Shown here: one piece after another, positions 2,750-49,734 of the stretch | Layout: each line of letters begins with the position of its first letter | Numbering within the stretch: the stretch's first letter is position 1 | Assembly: GCA_018661705.1 (NCBI GenBank) | Contig: JABJHR010000010.1 | Location: 66,911-130,910 of the forward strand | Length of the DNA: 64,000 nt | Source of the DNA: Candidatus Woesearchaeota archaeon | GTDB lineage: Archaea; Nanobdellota; Nanobdellia; Woesearchaeales; DSVV01 | Direction: 5' to 3' | The notes under the pieces: model-generated | Told to the model about the DNA's origin: nothing | Seen by the model: the letters and a program-made list of their open reading frames with translations, nothing else | Database searches by the model: none | Made by a program: the position numbers and the translations under genes

Positions 2750-2845
2750 AGCGAGAAAAGAGCATCCGCAATTGTTGAAGAGTAATACACTACATCTCAC
2801 ACTACAACACTAGGTCCGAAGGACATGTTACTCACGAATTTTTTA
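2750..2845 (+). repeat. Repeat family A, intact copy (A1): ...TAGCGAGAAAAGAGCATCCGCAATTGTTGAAGAGTAATACACTACATCTCACACTACAACACTAGGTCCGAAGGACATGTTACTCACGAATTTTTT
   Basis: Near-identical copies at 11851-11946 and 37236-37342 (-). Terminal inverted ends TAGTGAG/CTCACTA, a GGTCC-NNN-GGAC hairpin, and a 3' oligo-T. Confidence 0.7.
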
Positions 2846-2891
2846 GAAAAATAGAATTTAAAAATAAGAATTATAATTAAAAATTAAAAAA

Positions 2892-3461
2892 TTACGAATG
2901 ATATGATTGCATCTCTCTATGGAAACTAGTATAGCTTTTTATTTTGATTCTACTTTCGTTTACTCTATTTCCACATTTTCTATCATCAAGGAATGTACTA
3001 ACATCACCTTTTACAAATGCTGCTTGTGGTTTGTCATAACCAAATTCTTTTGTAACAACAAAGTGTACATCACTGCCTCTGTCATGGAATACTCTCCAGT
3101 ATGCAAAAGATTTTTTTGCTTCTCCATCTACATTACTACCCATTCCACATCCAATACTTCCTCTATCTTTAATTTCTGCCATAGTTTCTAATAATGAAAT
3201 CATTGCTTCATGTTTTGTTATATCAACTTTTAAACTATCTCCCCAATAATCACTTAAAATTTCAGGAACATCAAACCAAACAGCATCATAAGCTGTTCCA
3301 TTACTACCGCCGTTTACAATACCTGTGCCGGTACTAGATACTGATCTTCCTTCATAGAATGCAAATGCTTGATCTCTAAATGTTTGTGCTTCTTCAAGAT
3401 ATTTTTCAAGTGTAAGTCCTTCTGTGTCTGTTGAATGTCTTGGCATATTATTTACCCCCAA
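2892..3461 (-). CDS. hypothetical protein
   Basis: 189-aa ORF with coding-like composition; no motif recognised. Confidence 0.4.
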   Translation of the reverse strand: MGVNNMPRHSTDTEGLTLEKYLEEAQTFRDQAFAFYEGRSVSSTGTGIVNGGSNGTAYDAVWFDVPEILSDYWGDSLKVDITKHEAMISLLETMAEIKDRGSIGCGMGSNVDGEAKKSFAYWRVFHDRGSDVHFVVTKEFGYDKPQAAFVKGDVSTFLDDRKCGNRVNESRIKIKSYTSFHREMQSYHS

Positions 3462-3565
3462 TTGTACTAATTTATGCTTGTTAACACATAGGTTATATTT
3501 AAATGTTTTGTTTCTGTAACTACTCGTGAGTAGTTCTTATGTCTTTTGTATTTTGAATTGGGATT

Positions 3566-7232: not shown

Positions 7233-7488
7233 TGTTTCCCTCTTTTTTTTAAAATATTCTTACTATTGTATATGTACTTATTTATTAGATTATTTATAAA
7301 TATTTTGTATATTGTGTGTAACCTTTCTTTACTCTGCAGTAGTCCTAAACCAAAAAATATATAAATGATCTCTTTCCCCATATCTGTATTAGAGTACCAA
7401 AAGGGAGTGATTTCTTTGAGTCTTGAGGTGATCCAAAGTTAACAATTTGTCTTTTTTAAACAATTAGACATCTAACTAAGGTGAAAAT

Positions 7489-7605
7489 ATGGCAGGGAAA
7501 GTAACAGGTAAAGGCAAGAAAGGCCTAAAAGAAATTATGAACAGAACACGGTTTGACAAGTATGAATTAGAAGAATACATGCTTACAGACAAAGGTTTTC
7601 AATAA
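7489..7605 (+). CDS. small basic protein (38 aa) MAGKVTGKGKKGLKEIMNRTRFDKYELEEYMLTDKGFQ
   Basis: AGGTGA ribosome-binding site 6 nt upstream; below the ORF-track length cut-off; could be a small ribosomal-type or DNA-binding protein. Confidence 0.3.
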   Translation: MAGKVTGKGKKGLKEIMNRTRFDKYELEEYMLTDKGFQ

Positions 7606-7661
7606 AATTTTATTTTTTTCATAAAAAGCTTTTTATAGTGGATGTAATATAATTCTAGTTT

Positions 7662-23876: not shown

Positions 23877-23943
23877 TACTACCAACTACCAACTACTAAC
23901 TACCAACTACCAACTACCAACTACCAACTACCAACTACCAACT
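23877..23943. repeat. heptanucleotide tandem repeat (CTACCAA)x9, then (CTTCATA)x3
   Basis: actaccaactaccaactactaactaccaactaccaactaccaactaccaactaccaactt read directly; lies in the 3' region after the lipoprotein gene. Confidence 0.8.
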
Positions 23944-24408
23944 TATAACCCACTTCATACTTCATACTTCATACTTCAAACTTAGAACTCATATCCCCCT
24001 TATCTACTCCCGAGTGATTTAATGTTTATTCTTTATGATTTTGCTAGTAGAAAGGTTGTATTCTTAAATTTCTTATATTTTATAATCTCCTTATCGCAAA
24101 GTTTATAAACTACCAATTACTATAAAGGAATACATTAAAAGAGTTGTGTTGGGCTTTATACGCCCTAGTATAGTACTAAGTATAGTACATCGTATAATGT
24201 TTCATAAAAGCATTAACTAGTAAACAAGAGGTTGAACTCTACTTTCCAAGTAGATAATGCTCTTAGCTTTATCTAATGCTTTAATCCAAGTAGATAAAAG
24301 AATAAAAAACGAGTCAGAAAACAAACAAAATAAGAAAAAAACAAATAAAACAAGCAAAATACATACATAAAATACAAAAAAGTACGGAAAAGAATTGAGG
24401 TGAAAAGA

Positions 24409-34234: not shown

Positions 34235-34308
34235 ATATAAATGTTTTCATTATTAACCACTTTCAAGTAGTTAACACAATAACATTTATAAATAAACCTG
34301 GGTTTCCT

Positions 34309-35427
34309 GTGTATATGCATTTCACAGAATCAGACCTTAAAGAAAGATATCTAGAGAAATTACTTAGCTCTGCAAAGGCAACAGCTGCTGAACCAAAAGT
34401 AATTAGGTGGTTATCTCAAATGGGTAGGGGTGCCACTGAAGCACACGTAAAAGATTTTTTAGGTTCTATTGCTACTAATAAAATGATTAAATTTCAGGAA
34501 AGAGCAATGAGAGAATATGCTGTTGAATGGGGGAATGTTTCAACAGCGCATAAAGAATTTGGCCTTTACAAAACAATTGCTGAATTTATGGGACCTCAGG
34601 AAGGTTTAGGTGTTGATTTTGGATGTGGTGTTGGTCATTTAATTGCTGAAATACAAAAACTAAACAAAACACCTATGTTAGGTATTGATCTTAATTCTTA
34701 TACTTTACAGTTAGCAGAACAATTGCTAAAATCAGAAGATCATGATGTTACAAGAATGTCTGACTCACATATTTCATTTGATCCAATGAAAGGATTTGTT
34801 TTAAGACCAGTTCCTTATTCATTAGATACACCTGTTGATTTATCAGGAATAAATTTATTATGTGAGGATTTTGCAGATATGAAAAACACAACAAGAGTTT
34901 TATACAATCAAGGTAGGAAAGCAGATTTTGCAACATTTACTTTAAGTGGTGGAAAAGAAACTTATGATTCTGGAAACTTTTTACGAGTATTAACTCCTGA
35001 ATTAGATGATATTCATTCAAAAAAAAGTCCGCATTATTTTATGGATACTATTATAAATAATCTTTACAGAGTTTGTCATTATGGTGCAAAAGTTTATTTT
35101 GCTATAAGGTTTCAAGCTTTAGCGAGTGATGGGGGAGAAATTGTTGAAGTTGGTGAAACAAGTAATGACTCTAATTTAGTCTTGCTTGAGGAAGTAGAAA
35201 AATTTCATAGAAATCATTTTCATGACAGATATAATGGGAAATTAGAACTTCTTAAATTTGGAATCACAGAAATGTTAGATGAAACTGGGTTTGATGGAAT
35301 TGGTTTAAATAAAGGTATTATTGGAAGCATAACAAGTGATGCTAGTGGCGGAGATTTAGATGAACAAGTTGTTAAGTTTGATCAATACAAAGTTGTTTTA
35401 ATTGAAGCCAGAGTTTTGGGGAAATAA
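34309..35427 (+). CDS. class I SAM-dependent methyltransferase
   Basis: Motif I GVDFGCGVGHLIAEI; 372 aa. Confidence 0.6.
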   Translation: MYMHFTESDLKERYLEKLLSSAKATAAEPKVIRWLSQMGRGATEAHVKDFLGSIATNKMIKFQERAMREYAVEWGNVSTAHKEFGLYKTIAEFMGPQEGLGVDFGCGVGHLIAEIQKLNKTPMLGIDLNSYTLQLAEQLLKSEDHDVTRMSDSHISFDPMKGFVLRPVPYSLDTPVDLSGINLLCEDFADMKNTTRVLYNQGRKADFATFTLSGGKETYDSGNFLRVLTPELDDIHSKKSPHYFMDTIINNLYRVCHYGAKVYFAIRFQALASDGGEIVEVGETSNDSNLVLLEEVEKFHRNHFHDRYNGKLELLKFGITEMLDETGFDGIGLNKGIIGSITSDASGGDLDEQVVKFDQYKVVLIEARVLGK

Positions 35428-35428
35428 A

Positions 35429-36481
35429 ATGCCATTAGAATATTGTTTAGCAGCAAAGTTAGAAGGATATGGTGGTACATGTAGTTTTATGACTCAAAAA
35501 CTTAAGGGTTTAACAGAAGCAAAAGTAGATGATAATCTTCAAGAAAATCCAAATGATCCAAAAGCTTATATTATAAAATCTTATGTTATGCTGCAAACAA
35601 GAGATCCTAATGCAATTGCTTTTACAGAAAGTGCAATTGATAAGTTTCCTGAGAGTGAAGTTTTATATCATGCATTAGGAATGCTTCAGGCACAAAACGG
35701 AGATAATAAACTTGCTTTGGAAGCATACAAAAAAGCATTTGAACTAAATCCAATTAGTCTTGAATCTGCAATAAGTGTTGGAACAATGTTAAATAGATTA
35801 GAAAGATATGAAGAAGCAAAATCATTTTTCTATAGAGCAATTGAACTTAACCCAGAACATGTTGGTTGTTGGGTAAGCCTTGCAAAGTCTGAATTGGAAA
35901 CAGGAGAATTAGAAAAAGCATTACAACATATGAGTGCAGCTGTTTATTGTGCAGAGTTTTCTGGTGAAAAGAATCATGAGATTGCTTGTTTATCTAATAG
36001 GATGGAACTTTATGATAAATTAGGAAATATTTCAGAATTATTAGATGATTTTGAAAGAGTTTATAATTTAGATCCCAGAAAAGCATCCCACACAATCTCT
36101 GGAATCATTACAAGTAGATTAGGATCAGATGATCTTTTAGTAGTTAAGGAATTAACAGAAGGTTTTGAAACAAGAATTCCAGGGTTTGGTGGTGATTATA
36201 ATTTTTATTCTGTTTTAGGTATTGTTTATGCAAAGTTAGGTGAACAAGATAAAATAGAAGGGTTAGCAAAAAGAGCAATGAGATTTGGAATGAATCCTTC
36301 ATCATTATATGGGTTAATTAATCAAGTTCTTGGTTATAATGTTCTTGGTGAAAGTTCTAAATCACAAAAAAAAACCAAAGAAAAAGGAACAACTGTAAAA
36401 ACAGATAAAAAAATAGGAAGAAATGCTTTATGTCCATGTGATAGTGGAAAGAAATTTAAGAAATGTTGTGGAAATCATTAA
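35429..36481 (+). CDS. TPR-repeat protein with C-terminal SEC-C zinc-binding motif
   Basis: Multiple TPR-like A..Y..A repeats; C-terminal CPCDSGKKFKKCCG. Start chosen at MPLEY; the track start at 35402 would overlap the previous gene. Confidence 0.55.
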   Translation: MPLEYCLAAKLEGYGGTCSFMTQKLKGLTEAKVDDNLQENPNDPKAYIIKSYVMLQTRDPNAIAFTESAIDKFPESEVLYHALGMLQAQNGDNKLALEAYKKAFELNPISLESAISVGTMLNRLERYEEAKSFFYRAIELNPEHVGCWVSLAKSELETGELEKALQHMSAAVYCAEFSGEKNHEIACLSNRMELYDKLGNISELLDDFERVYNLDPRKASHTISGIITSRLGSDDLLVVKELTEGFETRIPGFGGDYNFYSVLGIVYAKLGEQDKIEGLAKRAMRFGMNPSSLYGLINQVLGYNVLGESSKSQKKTKEKGTTVKTDKKIGRNALCPCDSGKKFKKCCGNH

Positions 36482-36638: not shown

Positions 36639-36935
36639 ATGTATGAATTGGATGTAAAACCAAGGGCAGATAAGATTTTCTTTAAATTATCAAAAAAGAA
36701 TTCTATTATGCTAACAGCAATCCAGAAAAAAATAGATGAAATTAGATTAAATCCTCATCATGAGTATAAATTCCTGAGAAAACCACTACAAAAATTCAAT
36801 AGAGTTCATATAGATAAGCATTTTGTTTTAGTATTTAGAATTAATCACAATAACAGAGTTGTTGAAGTACATAATTTTGACCATCATGATTATATCTACA
36901 AATGGATACCAGTAATAACTTTACTATTCTTTTAA
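36639..36935 (+). CDS. RelE/ParE-family type II toxin
   Basis: 98 aa; ...KPLQKFNRVHIDKHFVLVFRINHNNRVVEVHNFDHHDYIY matches the RelE/YoeB C-terminal pattern. Confidence 0.6.
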   Translation: MYELDVKPRADKIFFKLSKKNSIMLTAIQKKIDEIRLNPHHEYKFLRKPLQKFNRVHIDKHFVLVFRINHNNRVVEVHNFDHHDYIYKWIPVITLLFF

Positions 36936-37157
36936 TCCGTATCTCTTTGCAAAATCTTTTACCCTTATACTCTTCTGTTTTTGTATTTTCTTCATTTCAG
37001 CAATAAATTCAGGTCTTAATTCAGGTTCTTCTTCTTCAATATATTTGCATACAATAAATTCTATTGCTTTTCCTTTGTCCTTAAGATCAAACTTTGCTTT
37101 AACAACATTCAAAACTCTATTTGTATTTTCATTAATCTGTACTAATGCTTGTACCAT
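36924..37157 (-). CDS. small DNA-binding-like protein, possible cognate antitoxin (convergent, overlapping the toxin 3' end)
   Basis: 77 aa; no antitoxin ORF exists upstream of the toxin (stop at 36600 in the toxin frame), so this convergent ORF is the only candidate partner. Confidence 0.3.
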   Translation of the reverse strand: MVQALVQINENTNRVLNVVKAKFDLKDKGKAIEFIVCKYIEEEEPELRPEFIAEMKKIQKQKSIRVKDFAKRYGLKE

Positions 37158-37394: not shown

Positions 37395-39236
37395 TTAATA
37401 ATTCACTAAGACTTCGACATCTTTACCAAAGATCTTTTTCATGTCTTCAAAGATTTTCTCTTTAATGAAAACTTTTGATGGAATCTCTATCTTAGCTAGG
37501 TGTTTTTCTAGCTCTTCTAGGTTACTCTTTTGAGTTGTTCCAATTCCACCATCTTTATTGATCTTTGCTATACTGATTTCTTTGTCTTTGTGATCTATGT
37601 CATGGATAATAAATGCTGTATCATCTAATAATAATACTTCACCGTATCTGTTTCCATGTTTAACTCTAATTTTGGTTCTTTCTAGTTCTCTTCCACGCTT
37701 TCTTTGCATGTATTCTACTAAGAATCTAATTAGTTCTCCAGAAACTTTTCTTGCTTGTTCAATTTCTGTTTTACCTAACTTGCCTTTATCATAATCAGCT
37801 TTTGCTTTGACTATTTCATCAAGCATTCTTAGATATTTTTGTGGAATTAATCCTTTGTGAACCATTTCATTTTCAAAGATTTTTAAGATTTCAGAATCTT
37901 TTACTTTTTCAATTCCTTCTAATCTTAAAATATCTCGAACAATTGTTACAACAGATTCATAGATATGAACAATTGATTCTTTTTCTTTCATAACTTCTAT
38001 CTGTGTGAACAGTTTTTTGATTCTCTTAAGGAATTTCTCTGCATCCGTTAACAATTTGTCAACTTCTTTTCCATTAAGTGATTCTTTTGTTCCATGTTCA
38101 AGTTCTTTTCTAATTTGGATGTTGTGTTCGAGGATTTTAACATATTCTTCCTCTAACAGTTTTTCCTTTTTAACAAACACTTCTCTAAGAAGTTTTGCTG
38201 TTTCTCTTGGAGCCGGTGGTGGAACACCATACAACATTAAAGCTGCCTGTGAAGGAGTTAAGATTGCATAGTAAGTATCTTCCATACCTATTTCTTTAAT
38301 CTTAAAGCTAACTCTTTTCAACATTTGCTCACCAGAGTTCATGAACATATCAATTGCTTCCATTGATGGTTTAATTTTTCCCATCCTGAGCAACTGTTTC
38401 CATGGCATGAAAATTCCTCTGTCGAAGAATGGCACACCATCTCTTAGTAATGTAAAGATTATTGGGTTTGCTTCTTTTAATGAGTCCCAGAAGTCTGTTA
38501 GGATATATACTTGGATGTTAAGTTTGTTTTTAATTCCAGTAATTTCTCCTGCTTCAATACCCATTCCAATAATAATTGCTCTCAGCTTATCTTTAAGCTC
38601 AGCTCTTGTCATTCTTTTGACATCTGTATCATCAATTACAATGAAAACGTCAATGTCACTTGTAGAAGTTGCTTGTCCTCTTACTAAGCTTCCGCTTAAT
38701 ACATAGGTTACAATATATTTTTCAAACTTCTTAAGAATCATATTTTTGTGAAGCTCTGCAATTTTAACTGCGCTCAACATACCTGCGTCATATACAGGGG
38801 CTGATAATGCAATTAATTGTAGAACATCATATTTTGCGTCATAACAACTTTGCCAAAGTTCTGAAAAAATAACTGTTCTTGCTTCGATATTTTTGTCTGT
38901 TTCTTTAGCAATGTTTTCAATGATTGATCCTAATTTTGATTTTAACTCTTCTTTAGACATTTTCTTTGAGTCAGTATCATCGATAAGAACTAAAACATTG
39001 ATTTTGTCTAAATTTGGTTTTCCACCTTCTTTAGGTTTTTCTGGTGGTAGTAATGCAATTCCTGCAATATAAGATTCAAATTTTCCAAGAAGTTTTTTCT
39101 TGAATGTTTCTAATTTCGCTTTAATTTTATCTAATTTTTCCTGTGCTTCTTTTGGTAGCTCAGGTGCTCCTGGTGCAACTGGCACTGCAGGTAATTTTTG
39201 AACTTTTTTAACTTTCTTTGCTTGTTTTTTACTCAT
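37395..39236 (-). CDS. protein with two tandem minimal nucleotidyltransferase (Pol-beta-like) domains and a helical C-terminal region with an Rx4H (HEPN-like) motif
   Basis: GS...DID-type motifs twice (VLVLIDDTD; GSLVRGQATSTSDIDVFIVIDDTD), K-rich N-terminus, IRKELEH. Confidence 0.5.
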   Translation of the reverse strand: MSKKQAKKVKKVQKLPAVPVAPGAPELPKEAQEKLDKIKAKLETFKKKLLGKFESYIAGIALLPPEKPKEGGKPNLDKINVLVLIDDTDSKKMSKEELKSKLGSIIENIAKETDKNIEARTVIFSELWQSCYDAKYDVLQLIALSAPVYDAGMLSAVKIAELHKNMILKKFEKYIVTYVLSGSLVRGQATSTSDIDVFIVIDDTDVKRMTRAELKDKLRAIIIGMGIEAGEITGIKNKLNIQVYILTDFWDSLKEANPIIFTLLRDGVPFFDRGIFMPWKQLLRMGKIKPSMEAIDMFMNSGEQMLKRVSFKIKEIGMEDTYYAILTPSQAALMLYGVPPPAPRETAKLLREVFVKKEKLLEEEYVKILEHNIQIRKELEHGTKESLNGKEVDKLLTDAEKFLKRIKKLFTQIEVMKEKESIVHIYESVVTIVRDILRLEGIEKVKDSEILKIFENEMVHKGLIPQKYLRMLDEIVKAKADYDKGKLGKTEIEQARKVSGELIRFLVEYMQRKRGRELERTKIRVKHGNRYGEVLLLDDTAFIIHDIDHKDKEISIAKINKDGGIGTTQKSNLEELEKHLAKIEIPSKVFIKEKIFEDMKKIFGKDVEVLVNY

Positions 39237-39488
39237 TTTCTCACCTTTAGGTTTGTTTTATTAACTAATTGGCGTCTCATTGTCACTTTTAGTGACAACC
39301 ATATAATTAATAGTATATTTTCGTTATATAGTTTATAAAGTATTGTTTACTTCACAATATAGGTGTGTGACAAAATAGTCATATTTTAGTGTTTTTGGGT
39401 AGTTTTATTCTTCACTCAAGAGTAGTTATGAATCGAAAACTTTAAATATAAGTTAGGTCTTAAGAATATTAATTTAGGGGTAATATGC

Positions 39489-41174
39489 ATGACTGATAAA
39501 GACAAAGATGATAAATCTGGCAAAGGTATCTTTGGTAAATATAGTAATGCGGCAATAATGAGTTCTCTTCTTGGTCTACATAAACAACAGTCTTCTTATG
39601 GGATTGGTAATATCTTAGCAACCACAAATAATCCTAGTGAAATTGATCCTGATCTTAAAGAACGTATGGGTAAAAAGAAATTTACATTAACAGATGGTTC
39701 TGATGATAATACAGGATTTTCTTATAGAGGAAATGCTGGTCCCTTAGGTGATAGTCTTTCTACTAAACTATGGCATGATGAAGGTTTTAGATTAGGAGCA
39801 CAAGGAAGAATGCCACCAACTGATTTAAATGATGTTATGAAGAAAGAAGCAGTTGATCTAAAACCTAAAATTAGATTTCCACATAAAATCAGTGGTATGG
39901 AAGATACTGGTTTCTTTGATATGTCTGGAAGTATGCAACGTGCAGAATACCCGCAATATGATATGTTTGGAAATCCAACTAATAATGCTGCGATAAAAGC
40001 AGAAGTTGAGAGATTGGGGCTTGGTTCTAATTTTGTTGATCTTGGTTTAGAAAAAAAATCAGAGTCTTTGGATTTTATGAATACGTATAAAGAACTAAAA
40101 AAATCAATTTATCAAGAACCTATTCTTAAGAAACAAATTACTAACTTAAAAACTAATAAAAAACTAATTAAACCATTTATTGATAGTGATGGTAATGTGC
40201 AACATCTTGATACTGCAGAATTTGCTAGGATACTTGCTGAGGCTGGACCTAAAAGAGAACCTACTTTTTATCTTGGTCCAAATCCTGCTTATGATCAACA
40301 ACAGACTGAAGAATCTGGACAAAAACCTTATGTTGGAGAAGCTCTTGCTCAACCTATAACAGTTCGTGACGAGGGGAAATTTGCAAGAAGAAATGGTTAT
40401 GTGGAAGGTCTTGAAGGTAAGTTTATGCCTCAACATGGTTTAGACTTTAAAAAATTAATACCTGAAGGATTTGGTGTAGGTTCTGTTGAAGAAGTTATTA
40501 CAAATCCACAATCATTTATGGAATATATTAGTGCAGTTCAATTAGGTGCTCCAATGTCTGGTTCAAGAAGTAATCCAAGAATACTTGCTGGAAGAATTTT
40601 AGGATTTGCAGTTGCAGTTGCTCGTGAGGCAGGAGTGATTCTTGGGGCAGAAGATGTTCCACTTTCAAACAAACATTATAATGTTTGGATGGGTGGTTAT
40701 AATGGATTAGAAAGGGCAGCATTAGAACAAGAAAAAGATAATACTGTTACATCATTTTCACAACAACCAAAACAACTATCAAGAGAAGATTTAGAAGATG
40801 AAGCAATGTATCATGCTGGATTAAGAGTTTGGGCTTCACAACATGGTGGAGAACATATTCCTGTTAACTTATTAAGAAATCCAATTGCTTTAGAAGCATG
40901 TAAGAGAACATTAGAAGGGGGAATGCCTTCACCAAATTATCAAATGAAAGATATGGCTTATTATATGACCTTATCAGCTAATATGGATCCACATATGAAA
41001 ATGCAATTTTTAAGTGGCGGTCCAGTTGCAAGAGCACAACAATTAGTATCTCAATCATCTATTGCAAATAGGGCTGAAAGCGATAAATTATTCTATGAAA
41101 TAATTGGATATGAATGTGGTTTAGCTATGAAAATGGCTGGAAACTCAGTTGTTGATCAGATGAATAAAAGATAA
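39489..41174 (+). CDS. hypothetical protein, paralog 1 of a tandem pair (shared ~300-aa C-terminal domain)
   Basis: The C-terminal region aligns with the next gene: GLEGKFMPQHG / GLETKFMPEHG; ILAGRILGFAVAVAREAG / IVAGRILGYVIGVARETG; MDPHMKMQFLSGGPVARAQQL / MDPQMKMYFLRGGPVAHARQL. Confidence 0.5.
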   Translation: MTDKDKDDKSGKGIFGKYSNAAIMSSLLGLHKQQSSYGIGNILATTNNPSEIDPDLKERMGKKKFTLTDGSDDNTGFSYRGNAGPLGDSLSTKLWHDEGFRLGAQGRMPPTDLNDVMKKEAVDLKPKIRFPHKISGMEDTGFFDMSGSMQRAEYPQYDMFGNPTNNAAIKAEVERLGLGSNFVDLGLEKKSESLDFMNTYKELKKSIYQEPILKKQITNLKTNKKLIKPFIDSDGNVQHLDTAEFARILAEAGPKREPTFYLGPNPAYDQQQTEESGQKPYVGEALAQPITVRDEGKFARRNGYVEGLEGKFMPQHGLDFKKLIPEGFGVGSVEEVITNPQSFMEYISAVQLGAPMSGSRSNPRILAGRILGFAVAVAREAGVILGAEDVPLSNKHYNVWMGGYNGLERAALEQEKDNTVTSFSQQPKQLSREDLEDEAMYHAGLRVWASQHGGEHIPVNLLRNPIALEACKRTLEGGMPSPNYQMKDMAYYMTLSANMDPHMKMQFLSGGPVARAQQLVSQSSIANRAESDKLFYEIIGYECGLAMKMAGNSVVDQMNKR

Positions 41175-41267
41175 ACTTCTTTTTCATTTTCTACTCTTGA
41201 GTAGTTATAAAACAAAAGATTTATATAGTAAACAGGTGTATTTTCTTTAAGATTAGGGGTAAATTCA

Positions 41268-42452
41268 ATGTCAGATGATGATTTTTTAGCAGAGCTTGGA
41301 ATAAGTGAAGAAGATTTTGTTAAGCATAATAGAGAAATTGCTAGAAATAACCAGCTTTCTGATGATGATTTTGAAGAAGTTACTGCAAATCAAGCTATAG
41401 AAACAGAAACTGCTGTAGCAAGACAAAGAAAATATGAGCTAGGTTTTGAAGCTGGTTCTAAAGGTATTGAACCCCCAAATGGGATTTTTGAAGTTTTAAC
41501 TACTACAACAAAAACTACTGCTAACTTTGACATTAATAGGGATTTGTATGCACATGAAAATCCAGATGAACAAATTGCTATTCCTGAATTAACTGCTAAA
41601 CCAACTGAGCATTTATTAATTAATCCTGACACTCAAAATCTAGTTTTTAATGCCATAGAAAAAAAAGCAAGGGCTATAAAAAATGCACAAACAAAAACCG
41701 GGCATAAAAACGTCTCAGGATTAACAGGTTATATTGAAGGACTAGAAACTAAATTTATGCCAGAACACGGAATTATATTTGACGACACTATTCCAGCAGT
41801 AATTCCTGTTAGAACTATTGAAGAAATTTTATCTGATTCTAAAGCTTTTTCTGAATTTGATCAAGCAATTCAATTACATGGCCTTTATTATGGTGACTTA
41901 GTTAATCCCTACATTGTTGCTGGAAGAATTTTAGGATATGTTATTGGGGTTGCTAGAGAAACAGGTCTTGTAATAAATGCAGGAGAGGTTCCATTAACAA
42001 CACCTCAATATAAAGTTTGGATGAATGGTTTCAATGCAACTGAGAAAGAAATACCAAATGGAAAAAAGCCAGCTCAACAAACTTTTGAAGAAGAAGTTAT
42101 GTATATGGCTGGTCTTAGAATTTGGTTAGCTAAAAATGGTGGTCAACATATTCCTGCTCAAGAATTAAGACATCCTACTGCATTAAAAAAGTGTAAAGAA
42201 ACTTTAATTGGTGGTGATAATCCTACTTATTATGGGACTAGGGAAGTTTCTTATTATCTAACTTTAGCAAAATCTATGGATCCACAGATGAAAATGTATT
42301 TCTTAAGAGGGGGTCCAGTTGCACATGCAAGACAACTTGCATCTTCATCATCTTCAATGGCACAAAACAAAGAAGAATTATTTCAGGAAGTAATTGGCCA
42401 TGAATATGGGTTAGCGATGAGAATGAGTGTGGGAATTAATAACTTAAAATAA
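41268..42452 (+). CDS. hypothetical protein, paralog 2 of the tandem pair
   Basis: See paralog 1; 394 aa, lacks the first ~170 aa of paralog 1. Confidence 0.5.
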   Translation: MSDDDFLAELGISEEDFVKHNREIARNNQLSDDDFEEVTANQAIETETAVARQRKYELGFEAGSKGIEPPNGIFEVLTTTTKTTANFDINRDLYAHENPDEQIAIPELTAKPTEHLLINPDTQNLVFNAIEKKARAIKNAQTKTGHKNVSGLTGYIEGLETKFMPEHGIIFDDTIPAVIPVRTIEEILSDSKAFSEFDQAIQLHGLYYGDLVNPYIVAGRILGYVIGVARETGLVINAGEVPLTTPQYKVWMNGFNATEKEIPNGKKPAQQTFEEEVMYMAGLRIWLAKNGGQHIPAQELRHPTALKKCKETLIGGDNPTYYGTREVSYYLTLAKSMDPQMKMYFLRGGPVAHARQLASSSSSMAQNKEELFQEVIGHEYGLAMRMSVGINNLK

Positions 42453-42602
42453 TTCTTTTCTTGTGAATTTAAGCTTTAATTTTTTCTTCATCTCTTTTTT
42501 CTTATTCTTCTTTTTATTTACTCGTTAGTAGTCCTCAAACACAATATTTATAAACACTTATTTGATTCTTTATGTAATAAACATACATATGAGGTTATAA
42601 TT

Positions 42603-43163
42603 ATGGCAGGAAATGTACATACAGAAACAGCAGGATTTTCAGAAAGAGAAACTGGTATAAATGCTCTTTTAGCTGAAGAAGTTGAACCAAGACTTATAGA
42701 TGAAGAATCAATTCCTTTAGATGTTGAACTTAATCAATTTGAACAGAGAGTTTATGATGCTTTAAGACCTAAGTTTGAGAGAGTAGGTTTTGATGTGGTT
42801 GTTAAAGGTTCTACACATAAGAAACATTTTCCAGAACATGATTATAGTTGGATTACTAAAGAATTAAGAAGAGCTGGAATTAATGCTCCTATAATTAAAC
42901 AAAAAACTCCAAGTAATTTCAAATATTTAATTGTAGAAGTTTCTCCGAGCGATGGACTTAGAAATGATGATCATTCCTTTGACCATAGTTATCACTTAAA
43001 ATCTGGATTTCATTCAAGATTAAATAAATTTATGACTGGTGGTGCAGTTCCACTTGATGATGCATCAAGAATTCCTGGCTATAAAAATGATGGTGTCTAT
43101 AAATATAGATTCAAAGTTGGTCCAGAAAGAGAAGCTCATGTAGAAATAAGATATACAAATTAA
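42603..43163 (+). CDS. hypothetical protein (third gene of the cluster)
   Basis: 186-aa ORF preceded by the same upstream palindromic motif as the two paralogs; hairpin terminator CCGACCA...TGGTCGG at 43195-43240. Confidence 0.45.
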   Translation: MAGNVHTETAGFSERETGINALLAEEVEPRLIDEESIPLDVELNQFEQRVYDALRPKFERVGFDVVVKGSTHKKHFPEHDYSWITKELRRAGINAPIIKQKTPSNFKYLIVEVSPSDGLRNDDHSFDHSYHLKSGFHSRLNKFMTGGAVPLDDASRIPGYKNDGVYKYRFKVGPEREAHVEIRYTN

Positions 43164-43350
43164 TTTCTTTATTAGACTAATATTAAACTCTCTCGTTCAC
43201 ACCGACCAAGATTAAGTGTTAATATCTTAATGTGGTCGGACAAAACATAAATTTATCATTTTACATTTTGCTCACTTGCCAAAATTGGCGATAGTTTAAT
43301 ATTAGCCTTTTTTATTAAACTTTATATATCATACAAATAATAACAAAAAA

Positions 43351-43656
43351 ATGAAAGAAATAACATCAGAAAAACTAGCTAAATACTTTGATGTAACTGG
43401 CAGAGCTTTAAAGAAAGTTAAAATAGTTGAAGGAAAGAAAGAAATAGATTTTAAAGCTAATGCAGAAGATTTCTTAGACATGGCTCAACGTTATTATAAT
43501 GATGCAAAACATTTTGAAGAAAAAGGAGATGTTGTTAATGCGTTTGCGGCTCTTAACTATGCCCATGGTTGGTTAGATGCAGGTGCTCGTCTTAATTTAT
43601 TTGATGTTGATGGAGATAATGTTTTGTTTACAGTAGATGCAAAAGAAGATAAATAA
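43351..43656 (+). CDS. small conserved archaeal-type hypothetical protein
   Basis: 101 aa, ...NAFAALNYAHGWLDAGARLNLFDVDGDNVLF... Confidence 0.4.
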   Translation: MKEITSEKLAKYFDVTGRALKKVKIVEGKKEIDFKANAEDFLDMAQRYYNDAKHFEEKGDVVNAFAALNYAHGWLDAGARLNLFDVDGDNVLFTVDAKEDK

Positions 43657-45549: not shown

Positions 45550-46056
45550 TTACCATTTACCAAATAAATACCCTAGAATTAAACCAACTATTAATCCAAT
45601 TAATGTTCCAAATGAGATTATATGTGCTTTTTCTCTTAGATCATCAAGGGATGTGAAATCAAAAGATTTTTTATTTGTTTTTTCAGCGTTTTTTGCAACA
45701 GTCTCAGTTTCTTTAATGTCTTGTTCTAATAACCCTTCAAAACTTGTAAAATCTTCGTGTTTTTTAATCTCTCCTTGAAGTTCTCCAACTCTTGTTTCTA
45801 TTAACTCTGTTATTTCACCTTTTGTGTAGAAGCAACTAACTGCCTCTGCTAGGTCAGAGTCTTTTAACACATCTTTAATCCAGTTTGAGAAATCATTTTT
45901 GTTTTCATTAACATGATGAGAAAATGATTCTTTATCCATTGTTTTCAATGCTTTTAGAAGTTCTTCTAAATTTACTAATTCTCCACCACTAACTACTTTA
46001 AACTTAAAATCGTGGTGTACATTACTTAATATTTTCTTGGCTTTTTTATGCATCAT
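45550..46056 (-). CDS. hypothetical protein with C-terminal TM helix; paralog of the next gene (shared HHVN-x-KNDF-x-WIKD motif)
   Basis: ESFSHHVNENKNDFSNWIKDVLKD here versus EHFVHHVNDKKNDFAKWIKDCMGE in 46083..46601. Confidence 0.45.
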   Translation of the reverse strand: MMHKKAKKILSNVHHDFKFKVVSGGELVNLEELLKALKTMDKESFSHHVNENKNDFSNWIKDVLKDSDLAEAVSCFYTKGEITELIETRVGELQGEIKKHEDFTSFEGLLEQDIKETETVAKNAEKTNKKSFDFTSLDDLREKAHIISFGTLIGLIVGLILGYLFGKW

Positions 46057-46082: not shown

Positions 46083-46601
46083 TTATTTAAATGATTTTAA
46101 CTCATTTGTAATATGTCTTAAGATTAATAATTCATTGCTTGACTTTGTTTTGTATTTTGCTAAGTCATTTGCTAATGTTTTTTCACCCATACAATCTTTA
46201 ATCCATTTTGCAAAGTCATTTTTCTTGTCATTAACATGATGCACAAAATGTTCTTCTTTCATATGTCTAATTGCTTTTGCTAAATCTAATAGATTATTAA
46301 ATTTGCTCCCACAACTGCTGTGAAACATTTTATCATTTCCAACATCTTTACTAAATTCAAAATTATGTTTATCTCCTAAATTTAGATTGTTATTCCATTT
46401 CTTATCTTTTATCCAATCCATGTTTATGTTTTTATCTTTAAAGTTTAGATTGGTAATTCCAACATTATTTGCTAGGCTTAATAATTCCTTATCTACAACC
46501 TTAGATTTCTTTGTTTTTGTTTTTTTTGCTTTAGAACTTGCAGTTTTCCTAGATTTAACTTTTTTTTGTGACATTGAAAATGTTTTTGCCATAATATGCA
46601 C
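46083..46601 (-). CDS. hypothetical protein, paralog (K-rich N-terminus)
   Basis: See previous. Confidence 0.45.
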   Translation of the reverse strand: MHIMAKTFSMSQKKVKSRKTASSKAKKTKTKKSKVVDKELLSLANNVGITNLNFKDKNINMDWIKDKKWNNNLNLGDKHNFEFSKDVGNDKMFHSSCGSKFNNLLDLAKAIRHMKEEHFVHHVNDKKNDFAKWIKDCMGEKTLANDLAKYKTKSSNELLILRHITNELKSFK

Positions 46602-48424: not shown

Positions 48425-48572
48425 CCTAGCGAAAAATAGCATTCGCAATTGTTAAAGAGTAATAATATTTAATATTTTAATACAAAAAATAACCATGGCC
48501 AGGCGAGGTGAAACCGAGTAGGATTTTTTGAGTGGAACGAAAAAAGTCCGTCTGTGCCTTTGTTGTTATTTT
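48425..48572 (+). repeat. A 5'-half (48425-48470) directly followed by a B copy (B4, 48486-48572)
   Basis: TAGCGAAAAATAGCATTCGCAATTGTTAAAGAGTAATAATATTT...AATAACCATGGCCAGGCGAGGTGAAACCGAGTAGGATTTTTTG-AGTGGAA-CGAAAAAAGTCCGTCTGTGCCTTTGTTGTTATTTT. Confidence 0.65.
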
Positions 48573-48600
48573 TTGTTCTTATACTTTCAAAGTTTTATTA

Positions 48601-49002
48601 ATGTCATTAAATAACTTTAAAATGGATTTACAAAAAAGAATTGAAACAATAAGAAAAAGAGTTGCAGAGAATAAAGCATTTAACCCTAATTGTTTTGGTG
48701 TTGCTTTGTACTTAGCTGGGTTTAGTGATAATTTGGCTTCAATTAGAAGAATAGGTGCTGAAGCTGTCTTAGGAGAAGAATTAACTCTTCCACAACCTGG
48801 TTGTTTTGTTACATTTAGATCCAGTAAAAGATATATGGAGTTACATCACCTAGGAATAATTCTTAATGGCAATCCCAAAGAAATGGCCCATTATCATTCA
48901 AATACAGGCTTAGTTTTAGACGAAAACATAAAGGCATTTCAAGAAAAACATTATAAGGGATATATGGTTAAATATTATCAAGCGAATCAACAAACATCAT
49001 AA
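48601..49002 (+). CDS. hypothetical protein
   Basis: Start moved to MSLNNFKMDLQ... because the track start at 48532 lies inside the B4 repeat. Confidence 0.4.
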   Translation: MSLNNFKMDLQKRIETIRKRVAENKAFNPNCFGVALYLAGFSDNLASIRRIGAEAVLGEELTLPQPGCFVTFRSSKRYMELHHLGIILNGNPKEMAHYHSNTGLVLDENIKAFQEKHYKGYMVKYYQANQQTS

Positions 49003-49038: not shown

Positions 49039-49734
49039 ATGCATATGAGAACTAAAATCATTGCAACTATTGGCCCTGCTTCTATGAAAAAAGTTAAACA
49101 AATGTGTAAAGCAGGAATGCATATTGCAAGGATTAATACGAAATATGGTAAAACCAAAGAGTATGAAAAGATTGTTTCTGATTTAAGAAAAACAAAATGT
49201 AAAATTATGTTTGATATTAAAGGTCCTATGCATATTGAATGGTTAAAGAAAAAAGATTTTGATTTTATTGCGGTTTCTTTTGCTCAAACAGCTAAACAAA
49301 TTAGAGAAATAAGAAAAGCATTTTCTCCAAGACGAATTAGAATTATCTCAAAGATTGAAAACAGAAAAGGTTTTCACAATTTAGCAGAGTTAATCAGAGA
49401 AAGTGATGGAATAATGGTGGCAAGAGGAGATTTAGGAAGACATGTTCCATTTGAAGAAGTTCCAATACTTCAAAAATTAATTATTAGAAGATGCAATAAA
49501 AAAAATACAATGGTAATCACTGCAACTGAGATGTTATTATCAATGGTTAAATCTAAAATTCCAGAAAGAGCAGAAGTAAGTGATGTTGCAAATGCAATAT
49601 TAGATGGCAGCAATGGAGTAATGCTATCAGAAGAGTCTGCTATTGGCAAACACCCTGTATTAGCTGTCCAAACAATGGCTAAAGTGATTACTTGCACTGA
49701 GAAGAATATGGGTAGATTGAGTGTTTGTGATTGA
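49039..49734 (+). CDS. pyruvate-kinase-like protein, truncated (231 aa; PK barrel motifs only)
   Basis: MRTKIIATIGPAS...AGMHIARINTKYG (PK N-terminus) and ITATEMLLSMVKSKIPERAEVSDVANAILDGSNGVMLSEESAIGKHP (PK active-site region). No B-domain insertion and no C-terminal domain. Confidence 0.5.
   Translation: MHMRTKIIATIGPASMKKVKQMCKAGMHIARINTKYGKTKEYEKIVSDLRKTKCKIMFDIKGPMHIEWLKKKDFDFIAVSFAQTAKQIREIRKAFSPRRIRIISKIENRKGFHNLAELIRESDGIMVARGDLGRHVPFEEVPILQKLIIRRCNKKNTMVITATEMLLSMVKSKIPERAEVSDVANAILDGSNGVMLSEESAIGKHPVLAVQTMAKVITCTEKNMGRLSVCD

Follow-up and report, generated by a model that had tools for sequence, protein, structure and literature searches.

The 64,000-nucleotide stretch analysed here (positions 66,911 to 130,910 of contig JABJHR010000010.1 from a Candidatus Woesearchaeota archaeon; hereafter the window) carries two tandem genes on the plus strand, which encode proteins of 561 amino acids (39489-41174) and 394 amino acids (41268-42452). 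We found that the two proteins are paralogs and that they belong to a family that is real, very rare, divergent and previously undescribed. It has no known relatives by sequence, or by structure so far as structures can be searched. We propose that the two proteins are tandem-duplicated members of a non-enzymatic, cytoplasmic helical-repeat family which would act as a scaffold or adaptor. We give this mechanism a probability of about 0.4; our confidence that the family is real and new is much higher.

A preliminary description of this DNA had reported the two genes and a third open reading frame (ORF) of 186 amino acids, and all three were recovered on the plus strand (third ORF, 42603-43163). 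The source is a metagenome-assembled genome, and the three proteins are identical to its entries at the National Center for Biotechnology Information (NCBI), HN695_05500, HN695_05505 and HN695_05510, all named hypothetical, which lie on contigs of up to 467 kb. In a BLASTP comparison the 561- and 394-amino-acid proteins shared 46% identity and 66% positives over 248 amino acids (E = 2e-73), and the paralogy is thus real and far beyond chance. Every sequence block quoted in the preliminary description was found in the paralog alignment. It had placed the likeness in a C-terminal domain of about 300 amino acids; a shared C-terminal region is there, while the strongly alignable block is about 250 amino acids long and the homology is full-length. 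The conserved all-alpha core comprises residues 303-550 of the first paralog (40395-41138) and residues 154-387 of the second (41727-42428). Both proteins also carry an N-terminal family motif, WHDEGFRLGAQGRMPPTDLN in the first (residues 95-114; 39771-39830) and YELGFEAGSKGIEPPNG in the second (residues 56-72; 41433-41483), and a hidden Markov model (HMM) of the family covers both from profile position 9-15 to about 324. Because the motif and the full-profile alignment are common to the two proteins, the extra N-terminal region of about 170 amino acids in the first paralog, which the preliminary description had set apart, reflects a longer linker together with an extension at the N-terminus and is not a domain of its own. 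Scanning with the family HMM found these two copies and no third, hidden copy in the window, and none among the neighbouring genes of 333-378 amino acids at other loci. No signal peptide-like N-terminus was seen in either paralog, as both begin with acidic or polar residues (MTDKDKDD..., MSDDDFLAE...), and no transmembrane-like stretch was found: the maximal 19-residue Kyte-Doolittle mean was 1.5, in a helix containing Arg and Glu (AGRILGYVIGVARE).

To place the family, we built a profile from the two paralogs and searched 1.84 billion cluster representatives exhaustively with HMMER. The search returned 35 proteins at E <= 1e-3, only 6 of them at E <= 1e-10, with 18-36% identity to the 394-amino-acid protein. 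A word-indexed search of 5.8 billion proteins, run with the single sequence and with an alignment, returned the query alone. None of the three proteins matched a family in Pfam (E <= 0.1) or PADLOC, matches to NCBIfam and PHROGs were noise at E >= 0.065, and a sequence search of the Protein Data Bank (PDB) gave no match. PADLOC likewise had no match for the rest of the family or its accessory proteins, and across all 34 members analysed the sole above-threshold Pfam match was a GNAT acetyltransferase domain fused to one relative (P0003). Thus no confident match to a well-known housekeeping family, which would have made the pair ordinary, appeared in the searches run.

The preliminary description had asked whether the family is lineage-specific, and its members are indeed restricted to Woesearchaeota-type archaea and bacteria of the Candidate Phyla Radiation (CPR), with 35 clusters among the 1.84 billion. 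Members were assigned to Woesearchaeota by source names (the window proteins and P0043, grouped with P0019) or by synteny (P0003 and P0022; P0004, which is followed by DUF357). P0009, P0025, P0035, P0016 and P0043 lie on archaeal contigs, which carry eIF-1A, eIF2-gamma, Hjc, S6e or a TFIIB-type Zn ribbon. P0012 is bacterial, since its cluster includes a Candidatus Levybacteria protein and its contig carries UvrA and UvrC, and P0006 is probably bacterial, its contig carrying PurL and DUF5667. Scanning GTDB genomes with the close subgroup found no relatives; the larger subgroup detected two loci, of which one holds an intact gene in a bacterial metagenome-assembled genome (MAG; L008) and the other a frameshifted relic (L009). 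The intact gene encodes P0012 and lies on contig CAZXEC010000006.1 of a MAG labelled 'uncultured Gammaproteobacteria', a label that looks doubtful because the 90% cluster of P0012 includes the Levybacteria (CPR) protein. The relic (2760-3560 of its locus), frameshifted and part-deleted, derives from a P0008-like family gene in a MAG labelled Methanosarcinales, and represents a pseudogene or else an error of assembly. A metagenome scan yielded five short contigs only, and searches of 50,697 phage records, 72,556 plasmids and the IMG/VR viral contigs turned up no relative. The family is best read as belonging to a flexible and rapidly evolving set of genes found in ultra-small DPANN archaea and CPR bacteria.

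An AlphaFold2 model of the 394-amino-acid protein, built on the 34-sequence alignment, had a mean predicted local distance difference test score (pLDDT) of 80.3 and a predicted template modelling score of 0.71, with 177 residues at pLDDT >= 90. All of its secondary structure was helical, with no strands. Most of the core (about residues 150-393) exceeded pLDDT 90, and the linker (residues 77-147) was largely disordered and held all segments with pLDDT < 50. Because the N-terminal motif (residues 51-70 of the model; consensus [YF]xxGxxxGxxGxxPP) scored 92-97 in spite of the disordered linker, it would be expected to pack against the core. Foldseek comparison of the model with the PDB and with the BFVD viral structures gave nothing below E = 0.9. 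A single-sequence model of the 186-amino-acid protein reached pLDDT 41 and was unusable.

Conservation among the 34 members was dominated by Gly, Tyr/Phe/Trp, Leu and Pro. Only G223, G254 and G282 were invariant; no polar residue was, and the best polar positions were kept in 76-91% of members, which argues against an enzyme. As the preliminary description stated, the tandem paralogs have no assigned function and show no catalytic motif that can be recognised. An aromatic-x-x-Gly signature occurred 7-10 times along most members. When segments were compared with each other by hhalign, internal repeats appeared (S1 with S5 at 84%, S4 with S6 at 80% and S1 with S2 at 67% probability). The core is thus probably made of three tandem helix-hairpin units, with half-units at both termini, followed by C-terminal helices. 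The first helix of the repeat reads Y-x-x-G-[LF]-x-x-[FWV]-L-x-x-x-G and the second [VH]-P-x-[DE]-x-x-[YL]-x-A-F-x-x-x-L-x-[GA]-E.

The 186-amino-acid ORF was found to be a genuine conserved partner gene, because the syntenic locus of a related Woesearchaeon holds a homologue of it, a 199-amino-acid ORF (34% identity over 135 amino acids, E = 1e-20); beyond this homologue the protein is an ORFan. That locus, on a contig from the Joint Genome Institute (L003/L014), has the order PfkB, Mur ligase, a divergent nucleotidyltransferase (NTase) gene, P0003 (681 amino acids, with the GNAT fusion), a 173-amino-acid ORF, a 207-amino-acid ORF (the gene of the 199-amino-acid homologue), P0022 (412 amino acids, the second family paralog), a 354-amino-acid ORF and DUF357, so that two paralogs again share one locus. 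A 168-amino-acid ORF next to the homologue matched it with an hhalign probability of 28% and may be a distant paralog of the 199/186-amino-acid family. Members of a second archaeal clade (L006, L010 and L013) have conserved accessory ORFs of their own, one set of 185 and 197 amino acids and another of 181 and 182 amino acids, the latter with weaker matches to ORFs of 212 and 168 amino acids; none of these showed homology to the 186-amino-acid family. At one of these loci (L010 5561-11181, also seen in L011 and L012), a tight cluster of eight unannotated genes on one strand surrounds P0035 and includes three mutually related proteins of 168-212 amino acids and two accessory families common to L006.

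A GNAT acetyltransferase is associated with the family in two different archaeal lineages. It is fused C-terminally to P0003, and a separate GNAT gene (L015 9079-9618) lies 32 nt 3' of P0016; both are above the Pfam cut-offs. We regard the fusion and the adjacency as a modest 'Rosetta stone' hint.

Based on these observations, we suggest the following model. In each protein, a short conserved helix motif at the N-terminus would be joined through a linker, disordered and variable, to a compact core of some 240 amino acids, in which three helix-hairpin repeats pack via the conserved aromatic-x-x-Gly contacts and are followed by the C-terminal helices. The core, as a helical-repeat scaffold or adaptor, would bind partner proteins, and the tethered N-terminal motif, to judge from its pLDDT and the architecture, would dock on the core of its own or of another copy. 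A heteromer of the two paralogs is plausible. As candidate partners we name the conserved 186-amino-acid protein next door and, in relatives, the fused or adjacent GNAT acetyltransferase. Several points weigh against this model. The repeats are deduced from short segments of 20-30 columns, and pLDDT and architecture are the grounds on which we suggest that the paralogs pair and that the N-terminal motif docks. No partner is universal, since the archaeal clades have different accessory genes and each bacterial member stands alone in a housekeeping neighbourhood. The GNAT link is found at 2 of about 12 loci, GNAT genes are common, and the two GNATs are only generically similar to each other. In the window itself, tblastn with both GNATs found nothing, so that no GNAT lies near the paralogs, and neither paralog has a GNAT domain.

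Upstream of each of the three genes we found a common layout of a motif, exactly 14 nt, a TATA-like box, about 30-40 nt, a Shine-Dalgarno sequence and the ATG, which is an archaeal promoter layout. For the first gene the motif is ACTCAAGAGTAGT (39414-39426, plus strand; palindromic core ACTCAAGAGT), with the TATA-like box TTTAAATA at 39441-39448 and the Shine-Dalgarno sequence AGGGGT about 7 nt 5' of the ATG. For the second gene the motif is ACTCTTGAGTAGT (41193-41205; palindromic core ACTCTTGAGT), followed by TTTATATA at 41220-41227 and again AGGGGT 5' of the ATG, and for the partner gene it is the imperfect palindrome ACTCGTTAGTAGT (42520-42532), followed by TTTATAAA at 42547-42554 and GAGGT. 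Each gene thus has its own copy of the upstream motif, as the preliminary description stated, while the palindrome is perfect at the first two genes and not at the third. The stop codons of both paralog genes are followed by T-rich tracts, and 3' of the partner gene a hairpin (CCGACCA..TTAAG / CTTAA..TGGTCGG; 43202-43239, plus strand; minimum free energy -16.2 kcal/mol, z = -2.7) is possibly a transcript-end structure. Each gene would therefore seem to be transcribed from its own archaeal promoter.

The shared upstream element has the consensus ACT[CT]N3AGT[AG]GT (site ACTCNNGAGTAGT). A composite of this motif, 12-16 nt and a TATA box occurs 7 times in the 64-kb window and 0 times in 200 Markov-1 simulations. 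The other sites lie at 3519-3534 (3531) on the minus strand, upstream of a 184-amino-acid unknown ORF; at 7331-7343 on the plus strand, upstream of a 38-amino-acid ORF; and as a back-to-back pair at 34259-34271(+)/34256-34268(-), between an M16 peptidase gene and a methyltransferase-like gene. Because these copies precede unrelated genes, the element appears to be of a regulon type rather than specific to the locus. The same promoter layout stands 5' of the orthologous genes in the related organism (L003 at about 795 and L014 at about 1774). The element sits just upstream of the position of the TFB-recognition element (BRE) and TATA box, the place at which archaeal activators bind when they recruit TFB or TBP. 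We conclude that the fixed-position element, common to at least three other promoter regions of the window, is probably bound by a single transcription factor, which would control a small regulon in this Woesearchaeon.

Some smaller features of the window were also recorded. The 38-amino-acid ORF MAGKVTGKGKKGLKEIMNRTRFDKYELEEYMLTDKGFQ (7490-7606, plus strand) has the full motif-TATA-Shine-Dalgarno layout and possibly encodes a small basic protein that ORF callers would miss. Two adjacent intergenic heptamer tandem arrays, ACTACCA x9.4 (23878-23943) and ACTTCAT x4.6 (23952-23983), lie beside a weak copy of the motif at 24003. In the divergent intergenic region upstream of the paralogs, a perfect inverted repeat TTGTCACT-TTT-AGTGACAA (39280-39298) lies about 45 nt 5' of the start of the neighbouring NTase gene and could possibly be its operator, and a related sequence, GTGACAAAATAGTCA, is found at about 39368.

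The window is ordinary chromosomal DNA, with a GC content of about 31% throughout, an unremarkable base composition and no Rfam families. It contains housekeeping genes for MutS, pyruvate kinase, PfkB, a Mur-ligase-like protein and M16 peptidases, together with DUF357, DUF2683 and DUF5752, which are typical of archaea. Next to the paralogs are the neighbours that had been named before: a divergently transcribed gene for a 613-amino-acid protein with NTase and HEPN domains (37395-39236, minus strand) and a RelE/ParE-like toxin gene (36639-36935), in addition to a DUF2683 gene (36924-37157, minus strand) and, on the other side of the 186-amino-acid ORF, DUF357 (43351-43656). The window has a second tandem paralog pair, of DUF5752-like proteins with 168 and 172 amino acids (45550-46056 and 46083-46601, both minus strand; 41% identity over 74 amino acids), one of which carries a C-terminal hydrophobic anchor. 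The pyruvate kinase gene may be split or frameshifted: a 231-amino-acid ORF (49039-49734, plus strand) matches the barrel domain from profile position 182 on, and a 156-amino-acid ORF (48532-49002, plus strand) lies just upstream.

Four other explanations of the paralogs were weighed. They could be self-assembling structural proteins that form a cytoskeletal or nucleoid-associated filament or lattice by arm exchange, in which each subunit would place its tethered N-terminal motif on the core of its neighbour and the two paralogs would co-polymerise. Such an assembly would agree with the high-confidence N-terminal motif tethered by a long disordered linker, with the recurrence of tandem paralogs in a second organism, with the strong-looking promoter and Shine-Dalgarno signals, and with the lack of conserved catalytic residues. 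We nevertheless consider it doubtful, as the extreme rarity and patchiness of the family would not be expected of a core cytoskeletal element, Foldseek did not match known filament formers, and the bacterial members are single-copy. Integrated virus or mobile-element genes, such as the paired alpha-helical capsid proteins of filamentous archaeal viruses, might look similar, since the all-alpha paralogs lie in tandem amid unannotated small ORFs and the eight-gene cluster at L010 includes paralogs; this is very improbable in view of the missing matches to BFVD structures and the missing relatives in phage, plasmid and viral collections. Moreover, the locus is syntenic in two Woesearchaeota between the same housekeeping genes (PfkB, Mur ligase and DUF357), and no integrase, tRNA or terminal repeats were seen. 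The preliminary description had suggested a capsid or encapsulin, and the HK97-type fold of these shell proteins is not supported: it is mixed alpha/beta, whereas the model contains helices only, and there was no BFVD, Pfam or PHROG match. Its other suggestion, an uncharacterised enzyme family, is also improbable. Charged positions are fairly conserved (basic 230 in 91%, acidic 231 in 85%, acidic 240 in 82%, R301 in 76% and K310 in 76% of members) and the GNAT association could reflect a shared pathway, but the helix-packing residues dominate conservation, no nucleotide- or cofactor-binding motif was found, and no profile of any enzyme family was matched.

The proteins might instead be components of a toxin-antitoxin-like or defence system that acts with the adjacent NTase/HEPN gene or genes. 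A divergent NTase or NTase-HEPN gene adjoins the family gene in the window and at L003, L006/L007 and L013, in two archaeal clades; RelE/ParE-like genes are nearby in the window and at L017, and the region resembles a flexible island. However, no NTase gene adjoins the family gene at L010, L016 or L008, and at L015 (where the match to Polbeta is faint) and L004 NTase-like genes are 5-6 kb away. The L010 locus shares the flanking MazE-like gene of L006 and yet has no NTase-HEPN pair, which suggests that the pair was an independent insertion. In addition, MNT-HEPN pairs are very abundant in archaea, so that chance adjacency is plausible, the family proteins contain neither an NTase nor an HEPN domain and do not belong to the MNT-HEPN systems, and PADLOC recognised none of the proteins. 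The patchy occurrence of the NTase/HEPN gene therefore points to co-location in a flexible region rather than to an obligate system, and a role of this kind is quite unlikely. A non-enzymatic helical-repeat scaffold or adaptor remains the reading we favour. A bolder extension of it, which we put forward as a rather long shot, is that DPANN archaea and CPR bacteria share a new alpha-helical fold across the two domains of life, as a scaffold of ultra-small cells (for instance an auxiliary subunit recruiting GNATs and lineage-specific partners, or a cytoplasmic assembly formed by N-terminal arm exchange of the paralogs) that would have spread by inter-domain transfer.

A large share of microbial diversity falls to the DPANN archaea and CPR bacteria, whose genomes are tiny and whose lineage-specific genes are for the most part uncharacterised. 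The family described here is a well-delimited example: it can be folded with confidence, has no counterpart among known sequence families or among the solved and viral structures that were searchable, is present in both radiations, is tandem-duplicated in two Woesearchaeota, and is linked to an acetyltransferase in two lineages. Its function is wholly deduced by analysis, and as the family is rare, its general importance may be small. If it is indeed a new scaffold or assembly, it would offer a handle on the biology of ultra-small, probably symbiotic cells and on the exchange of genes between them. In addition, the shared promoter element points to a small candidate regulon of an uncultured archaeon and, at a constant spacing from the TATA box, to a site at which an activator may bind.

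Among known systems, some resemblances did not hold. The type III secretion needle-tip proteins IpaD, SipD and BipD are also helical and gave a weak profile match of 37-45 residues around EVxLDNxxYxAWxxGFxAE (E = 0.012-0.046 against the PDB). We rejected this as chance, as the match is short and borderline, was not reproduced with the subfamily profile A4 or recovered by Foldseek, and comes from organisms without a type III secretion context. The N-terminal motif, Y..G...G..G..PP, looks like the Gly-rich helix of RMF/CrpP-type proteins and DUF2799, a likeness which we take to be superficial and which no search supported: one of the 34 members matched DUF2799 at E = 0.018, below the Pfam threshold, profile searches of the PDB at E <= 10 brought up no RMF chain, and the size and architecture differ. 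The paired capsid proteins of Lipothrixviridae and Tristromaviridae are likewise two all-alpha paralogs side by side in an archaeal setting; unlike them, the family proteins are much larger, have no viral match by structure or sequence, keep a conserved chromosomal position and have homologs in CPR bacteria.

The alpha-helical repeat scaffolds of the TPR/Sel1-like kind differ from the family in several respects. No Pfam TPR or Sel1 match was found in the 34 members, whereas a control TPR protein at 35402-36481 was strongly detected; the family has its own repeat signature ([YF]xxG[LF]xx[FWV], then [VH]Px[DE]xx[YL]xAF) and only about three units; no structural match was significant; and no GNAT lies near the window genes. 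Like these scaffolds, on the other hand, the family is all-alpha, is apparently built of tandem helix-hairpin units and has no conserved catalytic residues, and the top Foldseek match in the PDB, though not significant, was a designed helical repeat protein. It is also associated with RimI/Ard1-type GNATs, fused to one in P0003 and adjacent to another at P0016. In N-terminal acetyltransferase complexes, TPR auxiliary subunits of the Naa15 type hold the GNAT catalytic subunits. By analogy, we suggest that these TPR-type auxiliary subunits are the closest functional counterpart of the new family.

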